From: Nitrospiria bacterium
GTDB lineage: Bacteria > Nitrospirota > UBA9217
Direction of reading: 5' to 3'
DNA length: 64,000 nucleotides
Assembly: GCA_919902495.1 (NCBI GenBank)
Contig: CAKKRC010000012.1
Location: 4,714-68,713 of the forward strand
The translations under genes were made by a program, and so were the position numbers. Below the pieces are notes generated by a model that saw only the letters and a list, made by a program, of their open reading frames with translations, searched no databases and was not told where the DNA came from. This document shows positions 851 to 61,204 of this stretch, piece by piece. The number at the start of each line of letters is the position of its first letter. Position 1 is the first letter of the stretch.

Positions 851-954
851 ACCGCGAATGCGCGAGGGTGCGCGAAGGAAAGCTTTGAAGTCTTTACTTG
901 AATCAAAACGAATGCAGTTCTTGACGTCTTTGCGGCCTTTGCGTTTGCGAGAGA
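851..954. repeat. Inverted short-tandem-repeat element (CGCAAAG/CTTTGCG family)
   Basis: Degenerate left arm cgcgaatg-cgcgaggg-tgcgcgaagg. Right arm tctttgcg-gcctttgcg-tttgcgagaga. Same family as 55628 and 58161. Confidence 0.65.
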
Positions 955-991
955 CGCCTATCTTTTTCAGTTATTCTTGATTAGGCCATCT

Positions 992-1951
992 ATGCCTTAT
1001 ACCATCCTCATCACGGGCCTCGGCGCGCTCGGCACGGTCTTCGCGACCATGCTCAAGAAGGCAGGCCACACGGTCCACGCCCTCACGCGGGAAAAGTATA
1101 TCCCTGTTCTTGCTGACCGGCGGACGCGCGTCACCGGCATCTGGGGCGGGCACGAGGCAACACTCGACGGCCTTCACGTTTCCATCGATCCCCTTAAGAA
1201 TATTCCCCTTGACCTCATCATCCTCACCGTAAAATCCTACGACACTGCAGCGGCCATCGAACAGGTGAAGCCGCTTGTGGGAAAGGACACTCTCGTGATC
1301 GTCGCCCAGAACGGTTACGGCAACTATGAGACCGTTGCCGCTGCTGTCGGAAAAGAACACACGCTCCTGGCGCGGATCATCTTTGGCGTCAAGCTGCCTG
1401 CGCCTGGCCGCGCCGAGGTCACGGTCATCGCCGACGATGTTCGCATCGGCCAGCCGCATAACGCTGTCGATCCCGACCGGATCAAGGCCATCGCACGAGC
1501 GATCAGCAGTGCCGGCATCCCGACCGCCTACGCAGAGAACGTCGCCGCCATACTCTGGGACAAGATACTGTACAACGCGGCGCTGAACCCGCTCGGCGCT
1601 GTGCTCGAGTGCACGTATGGCCAGCTCGCGGAGAACGCGGGCACGCGGCAGGTGATGGACCGGATCATCGACGAGATCTTCCTGGTCGCGGAGGCCCACG
1701 GGATGCCGCTTAACTGGAAAACGCCCGAGGAGTACCGCCGGCATTTCTATACCAATCTCGTCCCTCCCACGGCAAAGCATTTCCCTTCAATGTATTACGA
1801 CGTCAAGGCGGGCAAGCGGCTCGAGATCGACGCCTTGAACGGCGCTATTGTTAAACTCGCTCACGAGAAAGGGATCAGCGTTCCGGTGAACGAGACCATA
1901 ACGTCGCTCATCAAGACGAAAGAGACGATGTCCTCGCGTCAGCCCGGATGA
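992..1951 (+). CDS. panE: 2-dehydropantoate 2-reductase (ApbA/PanE)
   Basis: GLGALG Rossmann motif, TVKSYD, QNG, W.K..YN..LNP, SM..D...G..LEIDALNG. ATG at 992. Confidence 0.92.
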   Translation: MPYTILITGLGALGTVFATMLKKAGHTVHALTREKYIPVLADRRTRVTGIWGGHEATLDGLHVSIDPLKNIPLDLIILTVKSYDTAAAIEQVKPLVGKDTLVIVAQNGYGNYETVAAAVGKEHTLLARIIFGVKLPAPGRAEVTVIADDVRIGQPHNAVDPDRIKAIARAISSAGIPTAYAENVAAILWDKILYNAALNPLGAVLECTYGQLAENAGTRQVMDRIIDEIFLVAEAHGMPLNWKTPEEYRRHFYTNLVPPTAKHFPSMYYDVKAGKRLEIDALNGAIVKLAHEKGISVPVNETITSLIKTKETMSSRQPG

Positions 1952-2012
1952 TCGTGCGCAAAGCGATGCAACTGCTTCCTCCCTCTTCAGGGATTCATAG
2001 TTTCGAATATCA

Positions 2013-2041
2013 TTGACACTGGCCGTTCCTTTTGCTACTGT
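2013..2041 (+). promoter_or_regulatory. sigma70-type promoter
   Basis: TTGACA-17nt-TACTGT upstream of the 2121 ORF. Confidence 0.6.
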
Positions 2042-2120
2042 CATACAGGGGCCTGTCACCAGTGAGAGCATCTTCGTTTTCATCCATCAGGCCAGAATAT
2101 AAGGAGCGAAAGGAGATCCC

Positions 2121-3035
2121 ATGAAACTGCGTACGATCATCAGTGTTGCACTGGCCAGTCTCGTTCTCTTCACCGTTGTTTCGATCGCCCAGGCAGAGGG
2201 GCTGAAGCCCTTTGTGCTCGGAGCGGAGCCGCAGCAGGCAGATGTCGATCAAACGGCCGCCGCGGTGCGGACCGCCCTGCTGGGCCAGGGTTTCGAGGTG
2301 GCAGGGAGCTACGCGCCTTATCCGAACGCCGTGGTGATCATCGTGACCAGCGAGGCGCTCAAGGCCAACGCCGCTAAGAGCGACTTCGGCGGGTACGGCG
2401 CCGCCATGCGTGTTGCCGTGACGAAGGTGAAGGACAAGGTCCAGGTGTCCTATACCAATCCTCCGTATCTTGCCGCTGCCTACCGGATGAAGGGGAACCT
2501 TGAGGACGTGAAGGCAAAGCTGGAGGCCGCGCTGGGAAAACAGAAGGAATACGGTTCCGAGGACGGGATCAAGGAAAAAAGCCTGCGCAAGTACAATTAC
2601 ATGATGGGCATGGCCAAGTTCGACAGTCTCGGCGACCATGAGCTGGCGGAGTTCAAGACCTTCGCGGAGGCTTTGAGCGCCGTCGAGGCGGGCCTTGCTG
2701 CGGGCAAGTCGGGCGTGACCAAGGTGTACCGCGTCGATGTCCCGGGCAAGGAAGAGGCCGTCTACGGCGTGGCCATCGCCAAGGGAAAGGGCGGCGACAA
2801 GTACGTCATGGACTACATCGACTTCGGCGACGTAAAATCAACGGCGCATCTTCCCTACGAGGTCCTGGTGTCGGGGAACAAGGTGTATCACCTCTTCGCC
2901 AAGTTCCGTATCGCCATCAGCTTTCCGGACCTCAGCATGATGGGCAGCAACAGCTTCATGTCCATCATGAGCGCGCCGGGGGCCATCAAGGAATCGCTCA
3001 CCGAGACGGTAACGCCGGCCAGCGAGAAGAAATAA
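2121..3035 (+). CDS. Secreted/periplasmic hypothetical protein
   Basis: AAGGAG RBS, Sec signal peptide ending AQA, host-like codon usage. Confidence 0.8.
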   Translation: MKLRTIISVALASLVLFTVVSIAQAEGLKPFVLGAEPQQADVDQTAAAVRTALLGQGFEVAGSYAPYPNAVVIIVTSEALKANAAKSDFGGYGAAMRVAVTKVKDKVQVSYTNPPYLAAAYRMKGNLEDVKAKLEAALGKQKEYGSEDGIKEKSLRKYNYMMGMAKFDSLGDHELAEFKTFAEALSAVEAGLAAGKSGVTKVYRVDVPGKEEAVYGVAIAKGKGGDKYVMDYIDFGDVKSTAHLPYEVLVSGNKVYHLFAKFRIAISFPDLSMMGSNSFMSIMSAPGAIKESLTETVTPASEKK

Positions 3036-3053
3036 GCGACCGAAGATCTACCG

Positions 3054-3111
3054 GGGTCATATCCCACGTGTGCCAGTGGCATCCATGGCGGGATATGGCC
3101 CTGCCTTTTTT
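3054..3111 (+). terminator. Putative intrinsic terminator between convergent genes
   Basis: GGGTCATATCCC...GGGATATGGCCC stem followed by a T-run. Confidence 0.55.
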
Positions 3112-3817: not shown

Positions 3818-3944
3818 CGGGATCCCTCTTCGGTTCGTAAAATATCGGCATCATACACGCACGGTCACGACGGGTCAAGAAGGAAGGAGAAACGTGTGGA
3901 GCGGAAGATCATGGTACAGGGGGGAAGGGGCGAGAGCAATACTA

Positions 3945-4080
3945 AGAGCATCAGTTCTTTGCGCCACCGCCAAACGTAGGCGCTTCTAAGCGAGGTTGCC
4001 GAGGACACCGAGGAAAGCTAAACACTTCTCCTCATAGCATTTCTCTGGGCACTCTGCGTCCTCTGTGGCAGAAAGATGCT
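3945..4080. repeat. Inverted 9-mer tandem-repeat element (CAGAGG/CTCTG family)
   Basis: Left arm cgaggttgc-cgaggacac-cgaggaaag. Right arm ctctgggca-ctctgcgtc-ctctgtggc. Outer IR agcatc...gccac / gtggc...gatgct. Confidence 0.65.
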
Positions 4081-4207
4081 AATCATGATGTGCGCTTGAA
4101 ATAACGGCCATATTTCGTGATGCGATCCCTGATAGGAGGAACAACGATCACGGTGACAAGCTGACGCGTATCAACAAAAGGAAGGAGGACGGTCCGACGG
4201 AGACGCC

Positions 4208-13879: not shown

Positions 13880-13891
13880 CAGAGGAAAGAT

Positions 13892-35123: not shown

Positions 35124-35190
35124 GCCGCAGATTTCGCCAATCAACGCAGATCAAACCAGCGTTCTTCCCTGTCTGCGGGACCTGCGGATA
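35124..35190. repeat. Degenerate inverted repeat element (CGCAGAT family)
   Basis: gccgcagat-ttcgccaat-caacgcagat ... tctgcggga-cctgcggat. Confidence 0.5.
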
Positions 35191-44589: not shown

Positions 44590-44689
44590 ATTGTAAAGTG
44601 CAAATTGTAAACAGTAAATTGTAAAGGTGTGGAGTTTTACAGGTTATTTAAAATTTACATTTTCCAATCTGCAATTTGATATTTCCAAT
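44590..44689. repeat. Inverted heptamer array (ATTGYAA x5 / TTRCAAT x5)
   Basis: attgtaa agtgcaa attgtaa acagtaa attgtaa ... ttacatt ttccaat ctgcaat ttgatat ttccaat. Confidence 0.85.
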
Positions 44690-44692
44690 TCT

Positions 44693-45153: not shown

Positions 45154-45254
45154 ATTGTAAAATGCAAATTGTAAATTGGAAATTGCAAAATGGTAAGGAC
45201 GGAATGTAGCCTTGCTGTTTTGCGATTTACAATTTGATATTTGCAATTTGCAAA
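45154..45254. repeat. Inverted heptamer array (ATTGYAA x6 / TTRCAAT x5)
   Basis: attgtaa aatgcaa attgtaa attggaa attgcaa aatggta ... ttgcgat ttacaat ttgatat ttgcaat ttgcaaa. Confidence 0.85.
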
Positions 45255-45766: not shown

Positions 45767-45868
45767 GACCCCAGATGACAGACTACAGACCACAGATTAC
45801 AGACAACAGACAACAGATGGAGGATCTTGACCCAGTCTGCACTCTGACCGTCTGATGTCTGAAAGTCT
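45737..45868. repeat. Inverted heptamer array (CAGAnnn x12 / nnnTCTG x5) overlapping nrdR 3' end
   Basis: cagaagc cggaagc caagagt cagaagt aagaccc cagatga cagacta cagacca cagatta cagacaa cagacaa cagatgg ... cagtctg cactctg accgtctg atgtctg. Confidence 0.8.
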
Positions 45869-45872
45869 TCCC

Positions 45873-49638: not shown

Positions 49639-49661
49639 AGAATAATAGAGAAAAGGAAAGC

Positions 49662-49922: not shown

Positions 49923-49930
49923 CATACATT

Positions 49931-50398: not shown

Positions 50399-50535
50399 GC
50401 CCCACCCCGCCTTTTTTCTGCTACACTTAGAACAGGTCGTCACGAAGCACCCACCCCGAACGATAAGACACGATACCGTGTGGCATCGCTAGTTGCGCCG
50501 TGGCGACACTATTTTCTGCTTTAAGGGAGGTAGCC

Positions 50536-51342: not shown

Positions 51343-51363
51343 CGAGGGAAGGCTTTCATCGAG

Positions 51364-51394
51364 AGCGCAGGCTTGCATGCCTGCGCTTTTTTTT
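51364..51394 (+). terminator. Intrinsic terminator
   Basis: AGCGCAGGC...GCCTGCGCT plus T-run. Confidence 0.85.
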
Positions 51395-51455
51395 GCCCCG
51401 GCAGCGGAACGGTCCTTATTGGCGCGGCGTCTGATGTATGGTACAATGCAACATT

Positions 51456-51719
51456 ATGCATGACACGATCACGTGTATGGAATTTCCCTGTTCCTTTCCG
51501 CTCAAGGTGATGGGGCAGAAGAGCGATGCCTTCGAAAAGGCGGTGCGCGGGATCCTGTCGAGGCACCTGCCGGGGATAGCGGTCGAGTACGAAAGCCGGC
51601 CGAGCGGCACCGGCAAATACCTGGCCATTACCGCGACCTTCACTGCAACGAGCCGGGAACAACTGGACGCCCTCTATCGGGAACTGAACGCACACGAGCT
51701 GGTCGTGATGACGTTGTAA
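51456..51719 (+). CDS. ybeD: YbeD/DUF493 family protein
   Basis: EFPC.FPLKVMG, S..GKY, QLDALY.EL..H..V.M.L. Confidence 0.9.
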   Translation: MHDTITCMEFPCSFPLKVMGQKSDAFEKAVRGILSRHLPGIAVEYESRPSGTGKYLAITATFTATSREQLDALYRELNAHELVVMTL

Positions 51720-51742
51720 CGAGTTGTTGAAAAAGACTTCTT

Positions 51743-51827
51743 GTAGCAACAACGCACCCTAAAGGGTGCGGCTACCCTGTGAAGAACAATACGTTATCGT
51801 TGGTAGCCGTCCCGTGCTAGCGGGACG
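51743..51827. repeat. Pair of GTAG-type REP-like palindromes
   Basis: Minus strand GTAGC-CGCACCCT-tt-AGGGTGCG (51753-51775). Plus strand GTAGC-CGTCCCG-tgctag-CGGGACG (51803-51827). Confidence 0.65.
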
Positions 51828-51847
51828 ACATAGCGTTTTTCACCTTT

Positions 51848-52549
51848 ATGAAAAAAGTACTGATCGCAAAAGAGCTCCACGCCCTGCTTGAGCAGGACCG
51901 TTCCTTTCTGGACCGGACGGACATGCAGGTGTTCGTCGCCGCAACGAACGACGAGGTGTTGACCATCCATCGCGCCGAGCGGGTGGACCTCATCATAGCG
52001 AAGCTCGATCTGCCGGGCATGGCCAGCGAGAAACTGTATGGTCTGATCCGGGAGGATGCGGCACTTCGCACGGTCTCGACGATCTTGTGCTGCGCGAACA
52101 CTCCCGCGGCGATCAAGCAATGCTCGCACTGCAGGGTGAACGCCGTTCTTCTGGAGCCGCTCCATTCCGTTCTGCTCATGGCAAAGGCACAGCAGCTCCT
52201 CGATATTGCCGCCCGGGAGATGATCCGCGTGCTTCTGGGCGTGGTCATAGATGGCCGCTTCGGGGACGAAGCGTTCTACTGCCGTACGAAGAACGTCAGC
52301 GCCACCGGCATGATGATCGAGACCAGGAAGCGGCTTGTTGAAGGCGCGCGGCTGACGTGTCAATTCTATCTCCCCGATGCGACAAGGATCCAGGCGCCAG
52401 GCAAGATCGTCAGGATCATTCAACAGACGTCCGGAGGCGGAGACCAGCAATACGGTCTCATGTTCACCGACATCGCCCCCGAGACCAAACAGCTGCTTGC
52501 CGACTTTGTCGAAAGCACCCGGCGCAAATCGCAGCCGGGCGGTCAATGA
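51848..52549 (+). CDS. Pseudo-receiver + PilZ domain protein (paralog of 6340-7062)
   Basis: DLIIAKLDLPG (no acceptor Asp), REMIR and NVSATG PilZ motifs. Confidence 0.83.
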   Translation: MKKVLIAKELHALLEQDRSFLDRTDMQVFVAATNDEVLTIHRAERVDLIIAKLDLPGMASEKLYGLIREDAALRTVSTILCCANTPAAIKQCSHCRVNAVLLEPLHSVLLMAKAQQLLDIAAREMIRVLLGVVIDGRFGDEAFYCRTKNVSATGMMIETRKRLVEGARLTCQFYLPDATRIQAPGKIVRIIQQTSGGGDQQYGLMFTDIAPETKQLLADFVESTRRKSQPGGQ

Positions 52550-52602
52550 ACGTGTCATTGCCTCCGGAATGAAGTAATACCGACCCGGCAGATCCTTTAT
52601 GT

Positions 52603-52706
52603 AACCACGGGTCCCGACACTTACGGGACACACAGATAAACACTGTTTTGAATTTTGCTCGTAGAACCAGTATTTTTAACCGTGTGCGGCGAAGCCGCCA
52701 GTGGTT
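52603..52706. repeat. Inverted ACACGG-repeat element with nested mini-hairpins
   Basis: AACCACGG[GTCCCG-acactta-CGGGAC]ACACAG-ATAA-ACACTG ... CCGTGT[GCGGC-gaa-GCCGC]CAGTGGTT. Confidence 0.8.
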
Positions 52707-52856
52707 ATAAAGCCTTTTATGTCAAATAGGACAGCTCGTGGTGAGGCCCTCCCCCCTGCAACCCATTCAAAATCCCGTTGTGCAAGCCTAAAAAATAGTA
52801 TAGAATTATTTCACTTTTCGCGCTCAGTCCCTTATTTTATTTTTCAGGAGGAAGCA

Positions 52857-54209
52857 ATGAGACAGACCAAGATCGTGCTTTCAGACAAAGAGATCCCCAC
52901 CAAGTGGTACAACATCATGGCAGACATGCCGAACAAGCCGAAACCGCCGCTCCATCCCGGCACCCGGCAGCCCGTGGGGCCGCAGGACCTCGCGGCGATC
53001 TTTCCCATGGACCTGATCCTGCAGGAAGTGAGCACCGAGCGCTGGATCGACATTCCCGAAGAAGTGCTGGACATCTATTCCCTCTGGCGGCCGTCGCCGC
53101 TCTACCGGGCCCATCGGCTCGAAGCGGCCCTGGGCACGCCGGCGAAGATCTACTATAAATATGAAGGCGTGAGCCCCGCCGGCAGCCACAAGCCGAACAC
53201 CTCCATCCCCCAGGCCTTCTATAATAAGAAGGCCGGCATGAAGCGCATCGCCACCGAGACCGGCGCGGGCCAGTGGGGCTCGTCCATGGCCCTTGCGGGT
53301 AAGCTCTTCGGCCTCGACGTGACCGTATACATGGTGAAGGTGAGCTACGGTCAGAAACCCTATCGCCGCATCATGATGGAGACCTGGGGTGCCACGGTCC
53401 ACGCCAGCCCGTCCAAGGTGACGAATTCTGGGCGAAAGGTCCTGGAGTTGGACCCGAACAGCCAGGGCAGCCTCGGCATCGCGATCTCCGAGGCCGTCGA
53501 GGACGCCGCCACGCATAACGATACGAACTACGCGCTCGGCTCGGTGCTGAACCATGTCTGCCTGCACCAGACCGTCATTGGCCTCGAGGCCAAGAAGCAG
53601 ATGGAGATCGCCGGCGATTATCCCGACGTCGTGATAGGCTGCTGCGGCGGTGGAAGCAACCTTGCCGGCATCGCTTTTCCCTTCCTTCACGACAAGATCG
53701 GCGGCAAGAAGGTCCGCGTGATGGCCGTGGAGCCGGCGTCGTGCCCCACGCTCACCAAGGGCGAGTTCCGCTATGACTTCGGCGACGTTGCCGGGCTCAC
53801 GCCCCTCATGACGATGTATACCCTCGGCCATGACTTCATGCCGCCGGGCATCCACGCGGGCGGGCTCCGGTATCACGGCGATTCGCCGCTCATCTCCCAG
53901 CTCTACCACGACAAGCTTATCGAGGCCCGGGCCTACAACCAGGTGCCGGTGTTCGAAGCCGCGCTGCAGTTCGCGAACACCGAGTCCATCATCCCGGCCC
54001 CCGAGAGCGCCCATGCGATCCGGGCCGTCATCGACGAGGCGCTCCTGGCGAAAGAGGAAGGGAAGCAGAAGACCATCCTCTTCAACCTGAGCGGACACGG
54101 GTACATGGACCTTCAGGCATATGCCGACTATCACGACGGCAAGCTCAAGGATTTCGAGTATCCCTCCGAAGAGATCAAAAAATCCCTCGCAAAACTCCCC
54201 AAGATATAA
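52857..54209 (+). CDS. trpB2: TrpB2-type tryptophan synthase beta subunit
   Basis: [55 protein letters not shown]. Confidence 0.95.
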
Positions 54210-54215
54210 ATAGAA

Positions 54216-54243
54216 CGGGGGAGCCGGATAACCGGCTCCCCCG
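54216..54243. terminator. GC-rich hairpin after trpB2
   Basis: CGGGGGAGCCGG-ataa-CCGGCTCCCCCG. Confidence 0.65.
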
Positions 54244-54329
54244 AACTGTTCTCATCCCTTCTTTGCTACATCAAGATCCCTTTCTTTTTTCTGCACCCCG
54301 GTTTCTTAATTACCGTGCAAGCAGACGTG

Positions 54330-54376
54330 ACTCACCCCACCCGGCCTCCCCTTAACAAGAGGAGGCGCGGAGGGGT
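54330..54376. repeat. Palindromic element (CTCACCCC...CCTCCCCTT-AAGAGGAGG)
   Basis: Hairpin cctcccctt-aac-aagaggagg flanked by acccc/ggggt. Confidence 0.5.
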
Positions 54377-54454
54377 CTGTTCGGAAACAAAATGGATATG
54401 AAAAAATAACACCAGTTGAACGTAGCACAGGAAGCCAGAGGAATTTCAGGCGGG

Positions 54455-55138
54455 TTATATCGAGGAGCGGTGTTTGATCTGTTCCAGGGCGTTCTCGGCG
54501 ATGAGGAGGTGACCGTCGGATTCCTTGACGATGCCGTTGGTGGCCAGCAGCTTCATGCACTTCGAAACGGCTTCGCGGGACGATCCGATCATGCCGGCGA
54601 GCTCCTTGTGGGTAAGCTTGCCGCGTTTGAGGAATCCCTTGCCACAGCTGTCATCGTGCTTCGCGCCGTCGAGGAGCGCCCTGATGAGCCGTTCACTGAC
54701 CTCCTGGAATGCGAGCGACTCGATCTTATCGTCAGCCTTTCGCAACCGCTCGACGAGGGTGGTCATGAGCGCGATGGAGATCTTGGGGTCCTTGTTCAGC
54801 AGCCCCAGAAAATCGACCTGGCTCAGGACCGACAGTTCCGAATCCGAGTCCGCCACGATCGTTGCCGACCTGCCTTTGCCGTCCAGCAGGCTCAGTTCGC
54901 CGAAGAACGCGCCCTTGTCGAAGTGGGCGAGGACGATCTCGTCCCCTTCGTCGTCCGACAGCAGGGCCTTCAGTCTTCCCGCGTCCACGATGTACAGGTC
55001 GGTGCTCATATCCTTCATGTGAAAGATGACCGACCCTTTTTTGAACCGGACCTTCTTGCAGTGCGACGCGATCGCCTTGAGCTGGGTGTCCTTGAGGTGG
55101 GCAAAGAGAGGGATCTGTTTGAGGTAATTGATAAGCAT
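54455..55138 (-). CDS. Crp/Fnr family regulator (cNMP-binding)
   Basis: FFGELSLLDG..RSAT, LTH.ELA.MIGSSRE.VS HTH. Confidence 0.95.
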   Translation of the reverse strand: MLINYLKQIPLFAHLKDTQLKAIASHCKKVRFKKGSVIFHMKDMSTDLYIVDAGRLKALLSDDEGDEIVLAHFDKGAFFGELSLLDGKGRSATIVADSDSELSVLSQVDFLGLLNKDPKISIALMTTLVERLRKADDKIESLAFQEVSERLIRALLDGAKHDDSCGKGFLKRGKLTHKELAGMIGSSREAVSKCMKLLATNGIVKESDGHLLIAENALEQIKHRSSI

Positions 55139-55232
55139 GGCTTCCCCTGAGAGGCGGCTGCGTGTTGCTTGAGCGCAACCCTGGATTTAATGGCTAACTA
55201 TACCATAGACCGTCCGAAAAATAAATATCAGC

Positions 55233-55261
55233 TTGACAGAGGGTATGGAAATCGGTACTAT
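55233..55261 (+). promoter_or_regulatory. sigma70-type promoter of csp
   Basis: TTGACA-17nt-TACTAT. Confidence 0.75.
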
Positions 55262-55318
55262 TGTTAGCGTCCGCAGAAAATTGCGGATAAATAAACATGA
55301 AAGGTTGAGGTAACAGAA

Positions 55319-55519
55319 ATGGCAGAAGGCGTCGTGAAGTGGTTCAATGACAGCAAGGGGTTTGGTTTTTTGAAGCAGGAGAACGGTGAAGATGTATTCG
55401 TACATTTTTCCGCGATCCAGACGGAGGGTTTCAAGTCGCTCAAGGAAGGCGAGCGCGTCTCCTTTGACATTGTGCAGGGGCCCAAGGGCCTGCAGGCCGC
55501 CAATGTCCAGAAGATCTAA
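55319..55519 (+). CDS. cspA: Cold-shock protein
   Basis: [35 protein letters not shown]. Confidence 0.97.
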
Positions 55520-55549
55520 CAACTAAAACTACAGCAATACCAAATCCTG

Positions 55550-55577
55550 AGCCCCGGAGCGATCCGGGGCTTTTTTA
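55550..55577 (+). terminator. Intrinsic terminator
   Basis: AGCCCCGGA-gcga-TCCGGGGCT plus T-run. Confidence 0.88.
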
Positions 55578-55627
55578 TTGCCCGCTTTAAGCTAAATTAG
55601 CGAGTGGAAAAACATAGATCAAAGGCA

Positions 55628-55702
55628 TCTCTCGCAAAGCCGCAAAGGTTTCAAGACAAATGGGCATCCTGCCTTTCTTTGCGAGCTTGGCGCTTTGCGA
55701 GA
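55628..55702. repeat. Inverted repeat element (CGCAAAG family)
   Basis: tctctcgcaaagccgcaaagg ... ctttgcgagcttggcgctttgcgaga. Confidence 0.75.
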
Positions 55703-55763
55703 TAACATGCTTATTGTTTGGTTCGGTTTGTCCCTCAAAAATGAATTCAGCTGGCTGTCAGCG

Positions 55764-56561
55764 TCACATCTTGCCATGAGTTTTTGTCCGTTCGTGGTAC
55801 GCCGAGCTGATCACCTGGTGCGCCCTCGTCGCCAGGTCCTTCCGTGACAGATGCTGATGCGCAGCGATGGGCTTCAGGATCGCGCATTCCACGTCAATGG
55901 ACTTGAGCGCCAGGAACCTCGGTAGGTGCTGAAAGAACGTCGTCCCGCCGTAGTAATAAAGAGAATCGCGGTTCGTCAGGTCAACGAGGCGTCCGTTGGC
56001 CGCCAGGTAGCGGATGCAGACCGGGAGGAGGCTGGTGCCGGCCGTGATGGCTGCGGTGATGAGCGAGTTCTTGAAGGGCTGCACCGTGTCTCCGTTCGAG
56101 GTTGTGCCTTCCGGGAACAACGCTACCGAGGTCCCCTGGCCGAGCACCGTTGCGATATCCTCGATCTCCCCCTTCAGGCCCGCGCGGCTCCGGCGCTCCA
56201 CGAAGAGGCACCCGCCGAGCCATGCGAACAGACCGAGCGGGAAGGTCTGCTTCAGTTCCACGGACGTGATGAACACCGAGGGCATGAGGGAGGCAACGAC
56301 GAGGATGTCCGCGTACGTGAGGTGGTTCGATATGATGAGGTAGTTCGTGCGGCGCTGCCGGAGGCCCTTTCGCTTCAGACGGCGGGAATGGACACGGATG
56401 CCCAGCAACCTGAGGCCGAGGCGCGCGAAGAACATGACGTTCCCGGTCAGGCGCTCCAGTTTCCGGGCGCGCTTCGCGGGCAGCGCCATGATGCAGAGCG
56501 CGACCAGCGCGTACAGGATAAGGAGCAGGAAGACGGCCAGAGATTTGAGAAGTATTCTCAT
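55764..56561 (-). CDS. Lysophospholipid/lyso-ornithine lipid acyltransferase
   Basis: SNHLTYADI (HX4D), FVER, LFPEGTTS.G. Confidence 0.9.
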   Translation of the reverse strand: MRILLKSLAVFLLLILYALVALCIMALPAKRARKLERLTGNVMFFARLGLRLLGIRVHSRRLKRKGLRQRRTNYLIISNHLTYADILVVASLMPSVFITSVELKQTFPLGLFAWLGGCLFVERRSRAGLKGEIEDIATVLGQGTSVALFPEGTTSNGDTVQPFKNSLITAAITAGTSLLPVCIRYLAANGRLVDLTNRDSLYYYGGTTFFQHLPRFLALKSIDVECAILKPIAAHQHLSRKDLATRAHQVISSAYHERTKTHGKM

Positions 56562-56800
56562 AGGAACTACGAGCTTTGTATCGTGGAGATTGCTGCAAAA
56601 ATACGATCAACATCCTTGTGTCGAACCGATTATGTAGCAAATACCGACGATTTTCAATGAGAAACTCAGCCTGACAGGTATTTTCCCTTCCTTTACATCC
56701 CTCCGAACGGGAGCTATACTTTAAGTGTAAGGAGACCATTCCCGTTCAATGAGTTGCATTCCGTGCTCATCGGTTCCCCCATAGAAGGAGGCATCGATCC

Positions 56801-57106
56801 ATGATGATAGAGTTCAGCGTTGTTCCCCTCGGAAAAGGGGTGAGCGTGAGTCCCGTTATCGCCCGGGTCATGCAGATTGTAATTGACAGCGGCGTGCGAT
56901 ACAAGGCGAACCCCATGGGGACGGTGATCGAAGGAGAGTGGGGGCGGCTGATGGACCTTATAAAGAAGTGCCACGACGAGGCGATGAAGGACGCGGACCG
57001 TGTTGTAACGTCCATCAAGATCGACGATTACAAAGGCAAGGGAGAGCGGCTCGACACCAAGTTAGAGTCGGTCGAGCAGAAGCTCGGGAAGAAGCTTAGC
57101 CGCTGA
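56801..57106 (+). CDS. MTH1187/YkoF thiamine-binding family protein
   Basis: FSVVPLG...SVS, SG..Y...PMGT.IEGE, RV.T.IKID. Confidence 0.92.
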   Translation: MMIEFSVVPLGKGVSVSPVIARVMQIVIDSGVRYKANPMGTVIEGEWGRLMDLIKKCHDEAMKDADRVVTSIKIDDYKGKGERLDTKLESVEQKLGKKLSR

Positions 57107-57132
57107 AGATAAGAGAGGCAAGGAGGCAGGCC

Positions 57133-57648
57133 ATGAAGACACCCGCAGGAAAAGGTAAGAACTACAGCACCAACTACAAGAAAAAGATCGTGACCACCGA
57201 CGCGTATCTCACGAAGAGCGGCCAGGGCGTAGCGGTCTGCGAGGGCTGCCAGGCGGTGTACCGGAACAAACGCTGGTATGTGGGCCCCGAGATCGTCAAG
57301 GCCGGGACGGTGGCGGTGAAGGTGGTCTGCCCGGCATGCCTTAAGATCCGGGACAATTTCCCGGGCGGCATCGTGACCCTGTCGGGCGACTACGTCCTTC
57401 CGCACAAGATGGAGCTGCTGAAGCTCGTCAAGAACGAGGAGGGCCGCGCCCGGGGCTTCAATCCGCTGGAGCGGGTGATGACCGTCAAGGAGAACGGCCA
57501 CGGGAGCGTCATTATCACCACGACGAACGAGAAGCTCGCCCAGCGACTTGGACGGGCCATCAAGAAGGCGTTCCATGGCGATGTCAAGTACCACTGGTCC
57601 CACGACAATAAGCTGGTGCGGGTGGATTGGGTGAAGGACGTGGCGTAG
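57133..57648 (+). CDS. BCAM0308 family protein
   Basis: C..C.AVY...RW, CPAC.KI.D.FP.G, PLER.M, TT...LA.RLGRAI..A..G, RV.W. Confidence 0.85.
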   Translation: MKTPAGKGKNYSTNYKKKIVTTDAYLTKSGQGVAVCEGCQAVYRNKRWYVGPEIVKAGTVAVKVVCPACLKIRDNFPGGIVTLSGDYVLPHKMELLKLVKNEEGRARGFNPLERVMTVKENGHGSVIITTTNEKLAQRLGRAIKKAFHGDVKYHWSHDNKLVRVDWVKDVA

Positions 57649-57652
57649 ATCT

Positions 57653-57722
57653 GACAAGGAGAAAGATCAAGAACGACAAGGGGACAAGGGGAAACTGACA
57701 CGGTGACGCGGAGACGCGGAGA
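57653..57722 (+). repeat. One-armed 8-mer tandem array (GACAAGGR / GACRCGGA)
   Basis: gacaagga ... gacaaggg gacaaggg ... gacacggt gacgcgga gacgcgga. Confidence 0.55.
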
Positions 57723-57738
57723 AATAACCAGAACAGCG

Positions 57739-57767
57739 AAGCGGGGATCTATGATCTCCGCTTTTTT
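57739..57767 (+). terminator. Intrinsic terminator
   Basis: AAGCGGGGATC-tat-GATCTCCGCTT plus T-run. Confidence 0.8.
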
Positions 57768-57773
57768 ATTGCT

Positions 57774-58073
57774 TCATTCCTCTTTTTTCAGCGAAGACAG
57801 GTACTCTTCCCATTCGGTGGGAAGAGAATATTTTTTCTTTGAGTTGCAGTCCTTGCAGGCGGGGACCACGTTGCCTGCGACGGACTTCCCTCCGCGCACG
57901 ACCGGAATGAGGTGGTCCATGGTGAGCTCGTCGGCCTTGAATTTTCCCCCGCAGTAATAACAGATCCCCGTCGACCGCTTGCGCTTCCACCACTGGGAGT
58001 TCCTGAGCTCCCGCGCCCGGGATTTTTCCCGCCTGATGTGTTCTTCGTCCGCTGATATGAAATGATCGGGCAT
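57774..58073 (-). CDS. Small HNH endonuclease
   Basis: CYYCG, LTMDH.IP..RGG.S...N.V.AC..CN. Confidence 0.92.
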   Translation of the reverse strand: MPDHFISADEEHIRREKSRARELRNSQWWKRKRSTGICYYCGGKFKADELTMDHLIPVVRGGKSVAGNVVPACKDCNSKKKYSLPTEWEEYLSSLKKEE

Positions 58074-58160
58074 GGGATTCGGCTCTTTCGTATTTTAGTT
58101 GAAATTACTTTATTGCCCTGTATCGACAAAGAACAGCGATTCCTCAATAAAAGACTATTT

Positions 58161-58329
58161 TCTCGCAAAGCCGCAAAGGCGCAAAGAAAGGATATCCCTC
58201 ATGAAAACAGTAAGTCGTAATAACAGAATGAAAAACAAGAACTTGGTTTAAGGTCTTCGCATCCAAATCAAGCCTTTCTCAGGCTGTTGTCGTTGTTTTT
58301 CTTTGCGTGCTTTGCGGCTTTGCGCGAGA
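58161..58329. repeat. Inverted repeat element (CGCAAAG family)
   Basis: tctcgcaaagccgcaaaggcgcaaagaaa ... tttctttgcgtgctttgcggctttgcgcgaga, with a ~110 bp AT-rich core. Confidence 0.82.
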
Positions 58330-58378
58330 CAGAAGTCCGTCGTTGCTTTTTCTAAATTTATTACAAATGAACCTTAAA

Positions 58379-58440
58379 TTCAGAAGTCAGGGGACGGATA
58401 ACAGAGGACTGATAACAGATCTAATCTATCATCTGGATTC
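58379..58440. repeat. Degenerate heptamer array (CAGA family)
   Basis: tcagaag tcagggg acggata acagagg actgata acagatc ... ctatcat ctggatt. Confidence 0.45.
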
Positions 58441-58538
58441 AAATTCTACCTATTTCTTCCGCCCTTGTCACGAACAATAACGGCCGATTCCCGGAAAGCC
58501 GCCCCACCCCGTAACACCTCAAAATATTAATATTTTTC

Positions 58539-58601
58539 TTGACATAGACCATGTGGATAGATATACTTTGCCAAAAGGTGGTATGAAGTGGGGAAGGGTG
58601 G
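58539..58601 (+). promoter_or_regulatory. dcw promoter with MraZ-binding boxes
   Basis: TTGACA-17nt-TATACT, then GTGG at 58578, 58588 and 58598 (10-bp period). Confidence 0.85.
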
Positions 58602-58615
58602 AGAAGGGGTCCTGA

Positions 58616-59050
58616 ATGTTCCGTGGCAGCTTCGAACATAGCGTAGATTCCAAGGGCAGGGTGAGCGTCCCCTCCCGCTTCCGCGAACTCCTTGCGGAGC
58701 GGTACGAGGGCAAACTTGTGCTGACCATGGACTTCGATAAATGCATCATGGTCTATCCGCTCGAAGAATGGGAGCGGGTCGAAGAAAAGATAAAGTCCCT
58801 TCCCCAATCGCAGAAGGAAGTGAAGGACTATACGCGGTTTGTCTTTTCCAACGCCACGGAATGCGAGCTCGACAAGCAGGGACGTATCCTGATCCCGCCT
58901 TCGCTCCGTGAGGGCGCGCGGATCAATAAAAGCGTCATGGTCGTTGGCATTCTGAACAAGATGGAGATCTGGGACAAAGGAGCTTGGGACACGCGAAAAT
59001 CACAGACCGGGGACAAGATCGGCGAGGTCTTGTCCACCCTGGGACTCTAG
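58616..59050 (+). CDS. mraZ: Division/cell wall cluster repressor MraZ
   Basis: MFRG...H..D.KGRV..P..FR, D.QGRILIP..LR, EIW. Confidence 0.97.
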   Translation: MFRGSFEHSVDSKGRVSVPSRFRELLAERYEGKLVLTMDFDKCIMVYPLEEWERVEEKIKSLPQSQKEVKDYTRFVFSNATECELDKQGRILIPPSLREGARINKSVMVVGILNKMEIWDKGAWDTRKSQTGDKIGEVLSTLGL

Positions 59051-59052
59051 CG

Positions 59053-59418
59053 ATGGACGGACAGCTAAAAATATATCTGATGAATCTCGAGGGCGAGATC
59101 GACGCCGCCAAGATCGCGGAGATCAACCGCGTCGTGGGCCAGTTGATCAAGGGCGAGATGTACGGCCTGATCCTGAATTTCGAGGCCGTAGAGCACGTCA
59201 ACTTCGCCGTCCTGCCGTCGCTGGTGGAAGAGAAGGGCCGGCTGCAGGCATTTGGCGGAGATATCCGGCTTGCCGGTCTTTCCGATTACCTCAAGAATAT
59301 TTTCAAGACCACTGGCGTTCTGGAGGCCTTTCAGGTGTATGACAGCGTTCAGCAGGCAGCCAAGAGCTTCGGCGTGTCGAAGGACAAGGTCGCGACGAAC
59401 CTGCCGCTGGGACTGTGA
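59053..59418 (+). CDS. STAS domain (anti-sigma-factor-antagonist-like) protein
   Basis: L.GEID, LILNF..V.H.N, GGDIRL..LS.Y...IF..TG, Y.S...A..SF. Confidence 0.85.
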   Translation: MDGQLKIYLMNLEGEIDAAKIAEINRVVGQLIKGEMYGLILNFEAVEHVNFAVLPSLVEEKGRLQAFGGDIRLAGLSDYLKNIFKTTGVLEAFQVYDSVQQAAKSFGVSKDKVATNLPLGL

Positions 59419-59419
59419 A

Positions 59420-59510
59420 CGGGAATTGCGGATCGCGGATTGCGGAATGCGGAATGAAAAAACAAAATCGCATCTGACAAATATTCCGGATCCTGCCTCC
59501 GATATTTCGC
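59420..59510. repeat. Inverted heptamer array (TGCGGAW family)
   Basis: cgggaat tgcggat cgcggat tgcggaa tgcggaa ... attccgg atcctgc ctccgat atttcgc. Confidence 0.75.
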
Positions 59511-59512
59511 GG

Positions 59513-60439
59513 GTGGAACATACGACCGTTCTCCTTCGCGAGGCCGTGGATTTTCTGGCGCCCCGGTCCGGCGGTGTGTACCTGGACGGCACGCTGGGCG
59601 GCGGAGGTCATGCAGAAGAGATCCTGAAACGGTCGGCGCCGGACGGCGTCCTGATCGGCCTGGACCAGGACGGGGCCGCCGTGGCCAGGTCCCGCGAACG
59701 GCTTGCGGGATACGGCGAACGGGCCGTCATTCGTCAGGAGAATTTCCGGGACGTCACCCGGGTCCTTGCGGATCTCGGGATCGATGCTCTTGATGGGGTA
59801 CTTCTGGACCTGGGACTGTCCTGGTTCCATCTCCGGGATCCTGAACGCGGTTTCAGCTTCCAGACGGAGGGGCCGCTGGACATGCGGATGAACGCGGACA
59901 GCTCGACAACGGCCGCGGACCTGGTGAACACCCTGCCGCGGCAGGAACTCGCCCGCATCCTCTTTCAGTACGGTGAAGAAAAAAGGGCGAATGCCATAGC
60001 GAAGGCAATAGAGCGGGCACGAGGCCGGGGGCCGATCACCAGCACGGTTCAACTCGCACAGATCGTTTCCAGTGTTTTTCCTCCCTACCCTCCCCGGCGG
60101 ATACATCCCGCCACGCTGACCTTCCAGGCACTGCGTATCGCCGTGAACGATGAAATGGACGCACTGCGCGAGGGACTGAGCGCGGCCGTCACCGTCCTGA
60201 GACCTCGCGGCCGCATCGCGATCATCTCATTTCATTCGCTCGAAGACCGCATCGTGAAGCAGGCCTATGTCGAGCATGCGAAGGGCTGCATCTGTCCGCC
60301 CCGGCTTCCGGTGTGCCGGTGTGAAAAGAAGGCCGATCTAACAATACTGACCCGCCGTCCGGTGATGGCATCGGAGGCCGAAGTTGCCGGCAATCCTGCA
60401 TCGCGCAGCGCGAAGCTCCGTGCGGCGGAGAAGGTGTGA
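59513..60439 (+). CDS. rsmH: 16S rRNA m4C1402 methyltransferase
   Basis: H..VLL.E, DGTLGGGGH, DLG.S, RGFSF...GPLDMRM, FQALRIAVN.E, ISFHSLEDR.VK, NP.SRSAKLR. GTG start assumed. Confidence 0.96.
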   Translation: MEHTTVLLREAVDFLAPRSGGVYLDGTLGGGGHAEEILKRSAPDGVLIGLDQDGAAVARSRERLAGYGERAVIRQENFRDVTRVLADLGIDALDGVLLDLGLSWFHLRDPERGFSFQTEGPLDMRMNADSSTTAADLVNTLPRQELARILFQYGEEKRANAIAKAIERARGRGPITSTVQLAQIVSSVFPPYPPRRIHPATLTFQALRIAVNDEMDALREGLSAAVTVLRPRGRIAIISFHSLEDRIVKQAYVEHAKGCICPPRLPVCRCEKKADLTILTRRPVMASEAEVAGNPASRSAKLRAAEKV

Positions 60440-60446
60440 TCAGACG

Positions 60447-60552
60447 AATTGAAAATTAGAAATTGGAAACTGCAGATTGAAAAATAATGAGGATAACACC
60501 GTTATGATCGTTTCACGTTTCAAGTTCCAATTCTCAATCTTCAATTTTCAAA
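60447..60552. repeat. Inverted heptamer array (AATTGAA family)
   Basis: aattgaa aattaga aattgga aactgca gattgaa ... tttcacg tttcaag ttccaat tctcaat cttcaat tttcaaa. Confidence 0.85.
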
Positions 60553-60568
60553 TAGAACAGTTATTCTC

Positions 60569-60928
60569 ATGAACACCCGTGCCGGACATATTGGATCGTT
60601 CCCCTTCGTCGGGAGCAGGGGCGGCAATCTGCGCCTGGTCCTGATCTTCGGCCTTATCGTCCTGGGCCTGATGGTGTACGTGGGCGGAAAGGTCCAGATC
60701 ATGCGGCTGGGGTACCAGATCGACGAACTGGAGAAGCAGAAGCGGGACCTGGAGCGCATGAACCGTTCCCTCCAGATCGAGGCCTCGAGCCTCTCGGCGC
60801 CCGGGCGGATCGAGGAGATCGCGGTCAAGCGGCTCGGGATGGTCCGGCCGGCAAAGGAAAACGTCGTGGTGGTGAAACGGAAGCAGGCTGTTGCGGCGCG
60901 AAATGACCGGCGCCCGGCCGCCCCGTAA
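60569..60928 (+). CDS. ftsL: Cell division protein FtsL
   Basis: Single TM, coiled coil, L.IE...L..P.RIE.IA...LGM..P. Position in dcw cluster. Confidence 0.92.
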   Translation: MNTRAGHIGSFPFVGSRGGNLRLVLIFGLIVLGLMVYVGGKVQIMRLGYQIDELEKQKRDLERMNRSLQIEASSLSAPGRIEEIAVKRLGMVRPAKENVVVVKRKQAVAARNDRRPAAP

Positions 60929-60938
60929 CGGATTAGGC

Positions 60939-61204
60939 AATGTCAATGTTCTATAAAAAACAAGAGCTGTTTTGCCGCAGAGGTCGCAGAGGAAGGCAAT
61001 TCTAAAATAACAGCAGAGTAAGTAATGGAATGCTGCTTAATTCCGAGATACTTCGGTTAACTGAAATTCATCTGATAATTGGACAAATGCCTTAGATTCA
61101 AATGACGAGGGTTCGTAGAAATCGTAGAGGGGGAAGAAGCGGAGAAAGAGGGTGCTGTGATTTAAGAAGTCCTCTGCGTCCTCTGCGGTGAAAGATTTGA
61201 CATT
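60939..61204. repeat. Inverted 9-mer element (CGCAGAGG family) with AT-rich core
   Basis: tttgccgcagaggtcgcagagga ... tcctctgcgtcctctgcggtgaaa. Outer IR aatgtcaa/ttgacatt. Confidence 0.8.

Follow-up and report, generated by a model that had tools for sequence, protein, structure and literature searches.

The 64,000-nucleotide stretch of Nitrospiria DNA analysed here (the window) carries intergenic hairpin repeats which we take, with a probability of roughly 70%, to be small mobile elements in a gene-less form, the full form of which holds one of two tiny genes. These elements would be of the same kind as the 23S rRNA intervening sequence (IVS), mobilised in trans, cut by RNase III and decaying neutrally, and the window would hold about 14 copies of such small palindromic elements, most of them gene-less MITE-like derivatives.

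Inverted arrays in the window and across the genome

The original prediction had listed 13 elements and three partial copies. Sequence reading and folding at these 16 coordinates identified 12 of the 13 and two of the three as inverted arrays of 7-9 nt units forming hairpins of 23-42 bp (Table 1). The site at 35124 is weak, and the supposed partial copy near 6249 was discarded because folding gives only a terminator-like hairpin there. The element placed at 45737 is a real hairpin (45772-45868), but the start proposed for it falls inside nrdR. The low-GC island had been described as free of elements, and indeed no periodic hairpin occurs at 12000-28500.

Table 1. Elements of the window (copies are genomic copies at ≥70% of element length)
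Position	Element	Basis	Copies and context
853..949	empty; units of 8-10 nt, CGCGAAG/CGCAAAG-type; core of 48 nt	read, folded	23 pairs by folding, 7 of them G-U; upstream gene stop at 793, panE-like gene start at 992; 3 copies
3944..4098	empty; family e3945; CACCGAGG-type units; short core	read, copy alignment	three units of 9 nt in each arm, left CACCGAGGN, right reverse complement CACAGAGTN, plus outer inverted repeat; 23 copies
35124..35190	weak candidate; CGCAGAT-like units, two per arm, spaced	read, folded	adjoins tRNA gene 35014-35097; no second copy found across the genome
43187..43293	empty; arms of AACCACGG type with a period of about 15 nt	read, folded	rpiB-glyA junction; arm type also flanks GxxExxY gene at G000:C91:5852-6196
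44590..44690	empty hairpin of ATTGNAA heptamers, about 5 in each arm	read, folded	glyA-dCMP-deaminase junction; orthologous copies in 4 other genomes, missing from at least 5
45155..45253	empty heptamer hairpin; ATTGNAA; 40 pairs	read, folded	deaminase-nrdR junction, with different unit families in other genomes; family e45154, 9 copies
45772..45868	empty heptamer hairpin; ACAGACN; about 7 left units	read, folded	nrdR-priA junction
52602..52707	empty; AACCACGG-type arms; 92 nt core	read, folded	family e52603, 7 copies
55627..55702	empty; CGCAAAG 8-9 nt units; tiny loop	read, folded	3' of cold-shock gene terminator
57652..57722	left arm alone; units of GACAAGGG followed by GACGCGGA; no right partner	read	terminator next; solo arrays at same junction in G005, G001, G002; composite arm type also flanks four-helix-bundle gene at G000:C12:152950
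58159..58329	empty; three CGCAAAG units in each arm; core of 110 nt	read, folded	family e58161, 16 copies; among six congeners, insertion only in the window's genome
58379..58440	decayed ACAGAC-type hairpin	read, folded, orthologue comparison	orthologous hairpins intact in three congeners (G005, G004, G001)
59424..59512	heptamer element; TTGCGGA	read, folded	STAS-domain gene-rsmH junction; right arm decayed but left arm intact; hairpins related to it in 5/5 congeners compared with the window's genome (6/6 in all)
60447..60552	empty heptamer hairpin; ATTGAAA	read, folded	rsmH-ftsL junction
60934..61208	empty; CGCAGAGG / CGCAGAGGT units and outer inverted repeat; 180 nt core	read, folded	ftsL-ftsI junction

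Across the whole genome, 879 arrays (a 5-mer occurring at least three times at intervals of 6-11 nt) were counted, as against 166 in a Markov-2 control. The claim that the arms are reverse complements beyond chance holds at this scale, since a partner array within 400 nt is found in reverse-complement orientation in 181 cases, compared with 17 reverse, 23 complement and 56 direct. With one wobble allowed, 179 loci reach at least five units in total (77 and 79 in controls) and 86 reach at least six (19 and 20 in controls). A fold scan of 2276 of the 2319 intergenic regions of at least 40 nt, gene calls being those of our own crude gene finder, returned 376 periodic hairpins at an autocorrelation of at least 0.5 (null, 59) and 154 at 0.6 or above (null, 6), figures that undercount the elements, as the scan recovered only 6 of the 13 listed ones. 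The elements are MITE-like in that they form multi-copy families, cores included; alignment of the e3945 family reveals outer inverted repeats and a core common to the copies. A search of the elements against Rfam gave no match.

Full elements and their cargo genes

Full elements consist of a short gene between two inverted arms of about 30 nt, each made of 3-6 tandem units, and fall into two classes. The cargo of the first is a PF05635/TIGR02436 four-helix bundle (Avd-like, "23S rRNA intervening-sequence protein") accompanied by units that are mostly heptamers of highly variable sequence, and that of the second is GxxExxY (PF13366/TIGR04256), with 8-9 nt units of the CGCAAAG, CACAGAG or CGCAGAG type. 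In the window's genome (G000), 13 of the 14 PF05635 and PF13366 genes sit between arms of unit families present in the window, inverted tandem arrays flanking six of the seven TIGR02436 genes and all seven TIGR04256 genes; no other kind of gene was found as cargo. The association, which had been anticipated, extends well beyond this genome. At a flanking inverted-repeat score of at least 30, with the reverse/complement as control, arms were detected at 63 of 79 GxxExxY loci from many phyla (control, 10/79), at 28 of 29 four-helix-bundle loci in relatives (9/29) and at 56 of 71 such loci in metagenome contigs (14/71), where 54 of the 56 pairs of arms are periodic, with period 7 in 36, 8 in 11 and 9 in 7. 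The three GxxExxY unit types accompany their gene across phyla and many window elements belong to core-sharing multi-copy families, which contradicts the view that only the architecture, and not the sequence, is conserved.

The window itself matches no TIGR02436 or TIGR04256 family, in keeping with the reported lack of cargo, and its elements look like the gene-less counterparts of full forms carrying these genes, as expected of the empty, non-autonomous versions proposed. A Pfam scan of the 64 window ORFs likewise detected no transposase or transposase-like enzyme, as had been stated; this counts against the mobile-element explanation.

Arms and gene are inherited together. Among 64 relatives, the number of CGCAAAG arrays tracks that of GxxExxY genes (Spearman 0.66): the 13 relatives lacking the gene have 0, 0, 0, 0, 0, 0, 1, 1, 1, 2, 4, 4 and 100 arrays, as against a median of 27 in the 51 that possess it, and the contrast is seen again inside two genera (g27 and g11). 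Arm and gene distances are correlated for both GxxExxY (Mantel r = 0.34, p at most 0.001) and the four-helix bundle (r = 0.38, p = 0.0005), although such co-occurrence and correlation are expected from co-inheritance among relatives that are also non-independent, and do not amount to proof of trans-mobilisation. The four-helix-bundle protein matches PDB 2GSC. The AF2 model of GxxExxY (pLDDT 95.8) has a restriction-endonuclease-like fold (best Z 8.3), and 39 sequences share E27, D67, E77 and K79 without exception. The protein has a PD-(D/E)XK nuclease fold with invariant E, D and ExK residues.

Turnover at orthologous junctions and competing explanations

Comparison of orthologous junctions, put forward as a gauge of mobility, revealed gain, loss and replacement of elements. 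At ftsL-ftsI, G004 and G002 have no element, and three different unit families occupy the junction in G000/G005, G001 and G003; the G005 element has the same arms as that of the window's genome with a core of 50 nt rather than 180 nt. At rsmH-ftsL, the right arm has decayed in G005, only the last unit remains in G004, a different element is present in G001, and G002 and G003 have a 2 nt spacer. Both rsmH-ftsL and glyA-cdd range from spacers of 2-33 nt to several different elements. Counting against the mobile-element explanation, some copies persist across genera: the ATTGTAA element at glyA-cdd in five genomes of three genera, a related hairpin at STAS-rsmH in 6/6 congeners, and solo arms in four congeners. 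One suggestive target-site duplication was encountered among the orthologous junctions; none is visible in the 23-copy e3945 family. The proposed targeting of stop/start junctions amounts to no more than a moderate enrichment: elements occupy 17.5% of intergenic regions between co-directional genes, 10.9% of those between convergent genes and 7.5% of those between divergent genes. Purifying selection could produce this pattern equally well.

It is unlikely that the hairpins are selected host RNA elements, i.e., stem-loops between cistrons by which operon mRNAs are stabilised or processed, with mobility being secondary. Their location would suit such a role: 89% of periodic hairpins lie between co-directional genes, starting a median of 11 nt past the stop codon and ending a median of 28 nt ahead of the next start. 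Correia elements act in this way according to the available text of PMC2649163 and PMC10969869, and sense-strand folds are slightly more stable here (mean -0.9 kcal/mol, p = 0.03). The cdd-nrdR junction is occupied by some element, of any family, in most of 19 genomes compared, which could reflect a local function and not mere tolerance. However, G-U pairs show no sense-strand bias over A-C (878 vs 826; 142 vs 131 loci), a result that neither supports nor excludes a role as RNA, and in none of the seven families examined do the two arms of one element pair better with each other than with those of other copies. As individual copies do not maintain their pairing and there is no clear strand bias, pairing is inherited rather than locally selected. 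Arms are visibly decayed at several orthologous sites, many orthologous junctions function with spacers of 2-30 nt, and the failure to match Rfam also weighs against selected host RNAs.

Paired arrays of this type have been read differently in Geobacter metallireducens, where PMC2700814 describes four classes of paired sites, in each of which units of 7-9 nt are repeated 3-5 times in tandem on opposite strands, and interprets them as sites that a global regulator, or else a nucleoid protein such as IHF/HU, would bind. The e3945 family keeps a CACNGAG core in both arms. The arms are consistently mismatched at two of nine positions, and at one variable position only 11 of the 23 copies can pair; this pattern suits a protein site more than it does a stem, and the solo arms kept in congeners point the same way. 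Host regulatory sites are nevertheless improbable here, since the same junction in congeners is empty or holds unrelated unit families, at least seven unit types coexist within a single 64 kb window, and arrays are rarest in the divergent, promoter-bearing intergenic regions. The arrays also flank two particular small genes across phyla and are almost missing from relatives without the gene. An origin in place, by replication slippage for the tandem units and template switching for the palindrome, would account for orthologues that differ in unit number (two vs three CGCAGAGGT units in G000 vs G005) and for the over-representation of heptamer repeats in bacteria reported in the part of PMC4692102 consulted. 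It is very improbable in view of the non-repetitive cores and outer inverted repeats common to dispersed copies, the tie to two gene families across phyla and the purine-rich 5' arm of 327 of 374 loci, a fixed polarity that local slippage does not impose. Hardly credible, finally, are REP/REPIN-type elements moved by RAYT, a Y1 tyrosine transposase. These are likewise intergenic and hairpin-forming, with a presumed mobilising gene between inverted repeat copies, and the present elements, numbering hundreds of copies, share a genome with four PF01797 ORFs; yet tandem-unit arrays flank none of these four Y1_Tnp ORFs, which have short repeats of other kinds, and the genes that arrays do flank are PF05635 and PF13366.

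Related systems and a proposed mechanism

One of the closest parallels to gene-bearing mobile elements of this design is the 23S rRNA IVS of Coxiella, Leptospira and others, in which a small PF05635 gene (S23p) likewise lies between the complementary ends of a long stem. The 5' arm of the Coxiella IVS carries tandem GACAGAT heptamers in variable copy number, and RNase III cuts its stem (PMC4990558); the 45772 element is of the same heptamer type. In contrast to the IVS, which resides in helix 25 or 45 of 23S rRNA, the present elements lie between protein-coding genes, are mostly gene-less, number hundreds per genome and have a second cargo class, GxxExxY, built to the same design. No IVS was found in two 23S rRNA genes of relatives, a point against the mobile-element explanation.

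Correia/NEMIS elements of Neisseria and other bacterial MITEs are similarly short, gene-less, multi-copy and intergenic, with inverted ends and RNA hairpins. The available text of PMC2649163 and PMC10969869 describes cutting of Correia elements by RNase III and outward promoters that can arise from them; outward-facing -10/-35-like matches occur in the ATTGTAA arms here. Correia arms are a single terminal repeat, whereas the arms described here repeat units of 7-9 nt in tandem, with many unit families side by side, full-length partners without a known transposase and scant sign of target-site duplication. Intergenic tandem 7-9 nt arrays, often in convergent opposite-strand pairs, are also known from G. 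metallireducens (paired "global regulator binding sites"), from Xanthomonas (inverted GGGAATC heptamer pairs) and from Beggiatoaceae and cyanobacteria (TAACTGA/STRR heptamer arrays). The portions of PMC2700814, PMC4692102 and PMC4679880 consulted report that their presence varies among close relatives and interpret them as regulator sites, G-quadruplexes or translational signals. Unlike those arrays as described, the ones found here are tied to two cargo genes; the searched text of the two heptamer papers does not mention "intervening sequence", nor that of PMC4679880 and PMC2700814 "four helix", and their supplementary tables might list neighbouring genes.

Altogether, we propose a model in which proteins encoded by the elements would act in trans on full and empty copies alike, using the tandem units as the sites for recognition and movement. 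Copies would afterwards decay neutrally, a step for which the decayed right arms at 59424 and in the G005 rsmH-ftsL element are counted. Inside transcription units, by analogy with the Coxiella IVS and Correia MITEs, from which experimentally shown RNase III cutting is transferred to the present case, the RNA would fold into stems of 25-30 bp that RNase III may cut. Such cutting would account for the tolerance of insertions, whether these lie between cistrons or within rRNA helices.

Inverted tandem-unit elements at gene junctions

The architecture put forward in the original prediction, in which a core separates a left arm of tandem units from a right arm of reverse-complement units, was recognised at 12 of the 13 main sites once all 16 coordinates had been read and folded, and these 12 elements fold as unbranched stems of 23-42 pairs. 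The units are 7-10 nt long, as had been claimed, while left arms were seen to hold 2-7 of them and not 2-12. At least seven unit types are found in the window, where at least six had been proposed: CGCGAAG/CGCAAAG, CACCGAGG/CGCAGAGG, AACCACGG, ATTGNAA, ACAGACN, TTGCGGA and GACGCGGA/GACAAGGG. Two of the sites turned out differently from their description, one being a weak candidate for a full element and one, listed as a partial copy, a merely terminator-like hairpin; the other partial copies are a genuine solo left arm and a decayed hairpin (Table). A Pfam scan places the window elements at junctions between ordinary genes, namely rpiB-glyA-deaminase-nrdR-priA and mraZ-STAS-rsmH-ftsL-ftsI.

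Table. Coordinates of the elements and neighbouring features (plain numbers are window positions; G000 is the genome of the window)
Feature	Position	Strand	Remarks
Element of the 23-copy family (e3945)	3944-4098		outer inverted repeats; 23 full-length relatives, core included
Site listed as partial copy	6249		terminator-like hairpin on folding
Low-GC island	12134-27080		GC 0.38-0.51
Site listed as full element	35124		weak candidate after reading and folding
DUF4160 gene, then small HTH_3 gene	41205-41986		in a local GC dip; looks like a small addiction/defence pair, no relation to the elements
ATTGTAA arrays	44590-44690		sigma-70-like -35/-10 matches, outward from both arms
ATTGTAA arrays	45155-45253		same matches; 9 full-length relatives, core included
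Element listed at 45737	45772 (true start)		present; starts past the nrdR stop codon
Element	52602		7 full-length relatives, core included
Solo left arm	57652-57722		listed as partial copy
HNH endonuclease gene, 99 aa	57777-58073	-	between the solo arm and the CGCAAAG element; kept at the same place in 5/5 compared congeners
CGCAAAG element	58159		16 full-length relatives, core included
Decayed hairpin	58379-58440		listed as partial copy; intact counterpart in 3 congeners
Element	60934-61208		outer inverted repeats
Clear terminator-like sites	54243, 55549, 57738		adjoin elements
Weak 5-pair terminator matches	55662, 58271		inside element cores
TTGCGGA hairpins	G000:C91:9595-10963		one at each of 3 consecutive junctions in a pseudopilin operon (type II secretion)
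TIGR02436 domain within a ~285-300 aa ORF	G000:C45:87251-87463		C-terminal zinc-ribbon-like tail; different context, no clear flanking arrays
Four-helix-bundle gene	G000:C57:22985-23305		in-frame TGA, probably a pseudogene; long GAAGTTGG arrays still flank it
Y1 transposase ORFs, ~300 aa	G000:C13:10408, C86:281, C86:3442, C4:88538		HTH-like tail; flanked by short repeats unrelated to tandem-unit arms

Over the whole genome, arms are more complementary and more periodic than controls, as the original prediction required. There are 879 arrays in which a 5-mer recurs three or more times with a spacing of 6-11 nt (Markov-2 control: 166). A partner array within 400 nt is a reverse complement in 181 cases; reverse, complement and direct partners account for 17, 23 and 56 cases, respectively. 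A fold scan covered 2276 of 2319 intergenic regions of at least 40 nt, delimited by the calls of a crude custom gene finder. Periodic hairpins, defined by a stem of at least 18 pairs and an arm autocorrelation of at least 0.5 at lag 6-10, number 376 against 59 in a shuffled-arm null (154 against 6 at an autocorrelation of at least 0.6). Their period is 7 in 142 loci, 8 in 99 and 9 in 94, arm length stays at about 31-37 nt irrespective of period, the stems have 25-29 pairs (medians), and the loop has a median of 11 nt and a 90th percentile of 110 nt. At least 368 of the 2319 intergenic regions of this 3.7 Mb genome are thus occupied. Since just 6 of the 13 window elements of the original list were recovered in this way, the true total is probably about twice as large. 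Occupancy is 17.5% in co-directional, 10.9% in convergent and 7.5% in divergent regions (chi-square p = 5e-5), and the median distance is 11 nt from the preceding stop codon to an element and 28 nt from its end to the start of the following gene. An exact-k-mer pair detector recovered just one window element, since arms vary by wobble and unit variants; allowing wobble with 2+2 units gave no separation (signal 816, noise 599-714). At 400-3000 nt there are 130 partners (controls: 88 and 71), considered as possible longer elements; inspection showed them to be separate neighbouring elements around ordinary genes such as hslV and gspG/H-like, FHA and bactofilin-like genes. The three TTGCGGA hairpins of the pseudopilin operon indicate that one family can fill several junctions of one operon.

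The low-GC island had been described as free of elements, and the fold scan finds zero periodic hairpins in it. By Pfam, it is a tightly packed biosynthetic cluster with ApeI- and ApeP-like dehydratases, several ketoacyl synthases, an aromatic amino acid lyase, a LolA-like protein, acyltransferases and a glycosyltransferase, a gene content that resembles an aryl-polyene-type cluster. Its near-zero intergenic space may alone account for the lack of elements.

Two gene families between the arms

The window elements had been taken for empty, that is gene-less, versions of a mobile or RNA-processing system, with TIGR02436 four-helix-bundle or TIGR04256 GxxExxY genes as candidate trans-acting partners. 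The genome holds seven matches to each family, with examples confirmed as PF05635 and PF13366, respectively, and 13 of these 14 genes lie between inverted tandem arrays. Six array-flanked PF05635 genes, two of them confirmed on Pfam, are located elsewhere in the genome; the window elements themselves contain no PF05635 ORF, and tblastn at E up to 1 detects no cargo-gene remnants in their cores. Empty window elements and cargo copies have arm units in common: four-helix-bundle genes are flanked by TTGCGGA, ATTGCAA and GACGCGG units repeating every 7-8 nt, and GxxExxY genes by CGCAAAG, CACCGAGG and AACCACGG units repeating every 8-9 nt. As for the genes inside longer copies, a search for longer elements returned just these two kinds and no other cargo.

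The association extends well beyond this genome. With a flanking inverted repeat score of at least 30 as threshold and reverse/complement matching as control, 63 of 79 usable GxxExxY loci pass against 10 of 79, in a set spanning Cyanobacteria, Acidobacteria, Planctomycetes, Bacteroidetes, Verrucomicrobia, Chloroflexi, Proteobacteria and other phyla. Almost all flanking arrays in this set are of CGCAAAG, CGCAGAG or CACAGAG type, and some loci carry a whole hairpin on either side of the gene instead of single arms. Four-helix-bundle loci pass in 28 of 29 cases in relatives (control 9 of 29) and in 56 of 71 usable cases on metagenome contigs (control 14 of 71); 54 of these 56 are periodic, mostly with period 7, and their heptamers differ widely in sequence. 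The more similar two proteins are, the more 6-mers their arms have in common (Mantel r 0.34 for GxxExxY and 0.38 for the four-helix bundle, p <=0.001), so arms and gene are passed on together. Among 64 genomes of the class, which are not phylogenetically independent, the count of CGCAAAG dimers follows that of GxxExxY matches (Spearman 0.66). The genome of the window has 155 such dimers, with about zero for the reversed pattern; 47 of 51 GxxExxY-bearing genomes have at least five, the 13 genomes lacking the gene have 0-4, save one 65%-complete genome with 100, and the contrast recurs within two genera. Co-inheritance would yield the same pattern.

Regarding the proteins, 39 GxxExxY sequences have E27, D67, E77 and K79 invariant, and an AF2 model (pLDDT 95.8) adopts a restriction-endonuclease-like fold. 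Structure searches (best Foldseek E 4e-4; best VIA Z 8.3, to 3IJM; Hjc, Z 6.3) identify this general fold alone and no specific functional relative, a sequence search of the PDB returned zero matches, and a table row in PMC3424549 classes PDDEXK_3 as of unknown function. The four-helix-bundle protein matches PDB 2GSC, described in PMC4990558 as a homopentamer and in PMC10053308 as related to the Avd protein of DGRs. In the literature found on both families, the repeats flanking PF05635/TIGR02436 or PF13366/TIGR04256 genes receive no treatment.

Turnover, dispersal and arm pairing

Comparison of syntenic regions in five congeners (G001-G005) and other genera bears out the expected gain, loss and replacement of elements. 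At ftsL-ftsI, G000 and G005 have CGCAGAGG arms in common around cores of 180 nt and 50 nt, respectively, G001 has a CGGAT-type element, G003 a CGCAAAG element, and G004 and G002 a 71-73 nt spacer with no element. At rsmH-ftsL, the spacer is 2 nt in G002 and G003, one unit is left in G004, the right arm has decayed in G005, and another element stands in G001. At glyA-deaminase, five genomes from three genera have ATTGTAA hairpins, five others have 10-33 nt spacers, and the remainder have other families. Most of 19 related genomes have some tandem-unit hairpin, of at least eight unit families, at deaminase-nrdR; either this junction attracts insertions or a hairpin is useful there.

Such behaviour, together with copy number, resembles that of MITEs, non-autonomous inverted-repeat elements. 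The window elements are short, non-coding and dispersed in multiple mutually similar copies: BLAST against the genome returns 23, 16, 9, 7, 6, 5 and 4 copies of at least 70% length for seven of them. In the alignment of the 23 copies of the e3945 family, the outer inverted repeat and the loop are shared, and each arm consists of three 9 nt units. Terminal inverted repeats are present, the arms being reverse-complement arrays, and orthologous sites are polymorphic for presence and absence. Longer partners with the same arms exist (13/14); their genes belong to PF05635 or PF13366, and neither family is known as a transposase. One filled/empty pair, CGGAT/TGGAT against a single CGGA, suggests a 4-5 bp target-site duplication; none is visible across the 23 copies of the e3945 family. 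When DNA contigs from four runs were compared with positions 43000-62000, depth peaked at arms, and joints were short-sided with other cores between; these observations show that arms are multi-copy in the sample and are no evidence of excision.

Oriented to the flanking genes, wobble positions comprise 878 G-U on the sense and 826 on the antisense strand (142 against 131 loci), sense-strand folds are more stable by just 0.9 kcal/mol (p = 0.03), and in seven families own arms pair no better than arms from different copies. Of the nine positions of a unit in the e3945 family, two consistently lack complementarity, and one that varies is paired in 11 of 23 copies. Complementarity therefore stems from the source element and erodes where a copy has come to lie, instead of being upheld in each copy. 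Purines predominate in the 5' arm at 327 of 374 loci, a fixed polarity that points to common descent or to oriented recognition.

Known systems and a possible class of mobile element

The closest likeness is to the intervening sequences (IVSs) of 23S rRNA. In Coxiella, the S23p ORF of the IVS is preceded by two to three GACAGAT heptamers and a degenerate copy, in variable copy number, and a 28 bp terminal stem is cut within by RNase III (PMC4990558). Complementary ends forming a long stem are common to both; in contrast, the window elements lie between protein genes and not in helix 25/45 of 23S rRNA. The 23S rRNA of two relatives, G016 and G010, has canonical sequence in these regions, and no 23S gene was found in G000, G002, G005 or the relative G067. 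Comparable arrays have other precedents: G. metallireducens has paired sites, each made of 3-5 tandem repeats of 7-9 nt and lying on opposite strands, interpreted as regulator or IHF/HU sites (PMC2700814), and Xanthomonas has 70-75 convergent GGGAATC pairs, interpreted as G-quadruplex formers (PMC4692102). TAACTGA arrays occur in Beggiatoaceae, cyanobacteria and Bacteroidetes (PMC4679880). Within searched text, "intervening sequence" is absent from PMC4692102 and PMC4679880, "four helix" from PMC4679880 and PMC2700814, and any mention of heptamer, tandem repeat or intervening sequence from a 2024 review of prokaryotic MITEs.

Among other candidates, Correia MITEs form hairpins that can be RNase III substrates and can create outward promoters (PMC2649163, PMC10969869); ATTGTAA arms likewise give outward promoter-like matches, the reverse complement of the unit containing TACAAT and the 7 nt period yielding a 17-18 nt promoter spacing. 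A REP/REPIN-RAYT system was rejected, as none of the four PF01797 (Y1_Tnp) ORFs of the genome is flanked by tandem-unit arrays. No element matches an Rfam family, tRNA alone reaching the gathering score in the window. Intrinsic terminators were also discarded: the clear terminator-like sites adjoin elements and are not on them, and the window total of 22 shows no excess over a shuffle mean of 20.3.

Altogether, the original observation is confirmed and its reading largely right: the window contains palindromic elements of IVS type that lack a gene and derive from two cargo classes. The element-encoded proteins presumably mobilise them, and, by analogy, RNase III may process their transcripts here. 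One could go further and propose a cross-phylum class of mobile elements lacking a transposase, in which the units are the read-out of an oligomeric cargo protein; taken jointly with its binding and movement steps, this is unlikely, with roughly one chance in five. An Avd-like pentameric four-helix bundle would bind about one heptamer per subunit, and a small PD-(D/E)XK nuclease would read 8-9 nt units. Movement might proceed by nuclease cleavage of an extruded hairpin or cruciform or, in the Avd-like class, through an RNA released by RNase III and copied back by a reverse transcriptase. The genome has one PF00078 (reverse transcriptase) ORF.

If true, the transposase-less proposal would unite 23S IVSs, cyanobacterial STRR, Xanthomonas GGGAATC pairs, Beggiatoa TAACTGA repeats and Geobacter "regulator sites" as one type. 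Like arrays have been reported repeatedly under differing readings, as regulator sites, G-quadruplexes or translational signals. The elements sit within essential operons (the dcw cluster and glyA-nrdR-priA), disrupt short-read assemblies and confound intergenic-motif searches. Their link to two genes that are both very common and functionally uncharacterised ("four helix bundle protein" and "GxxExxY protein") gives both families a testable role, explains a recurring annotation puzzle and suggests that 23S rRNA IVSs are the visible tip of a far larger element family.
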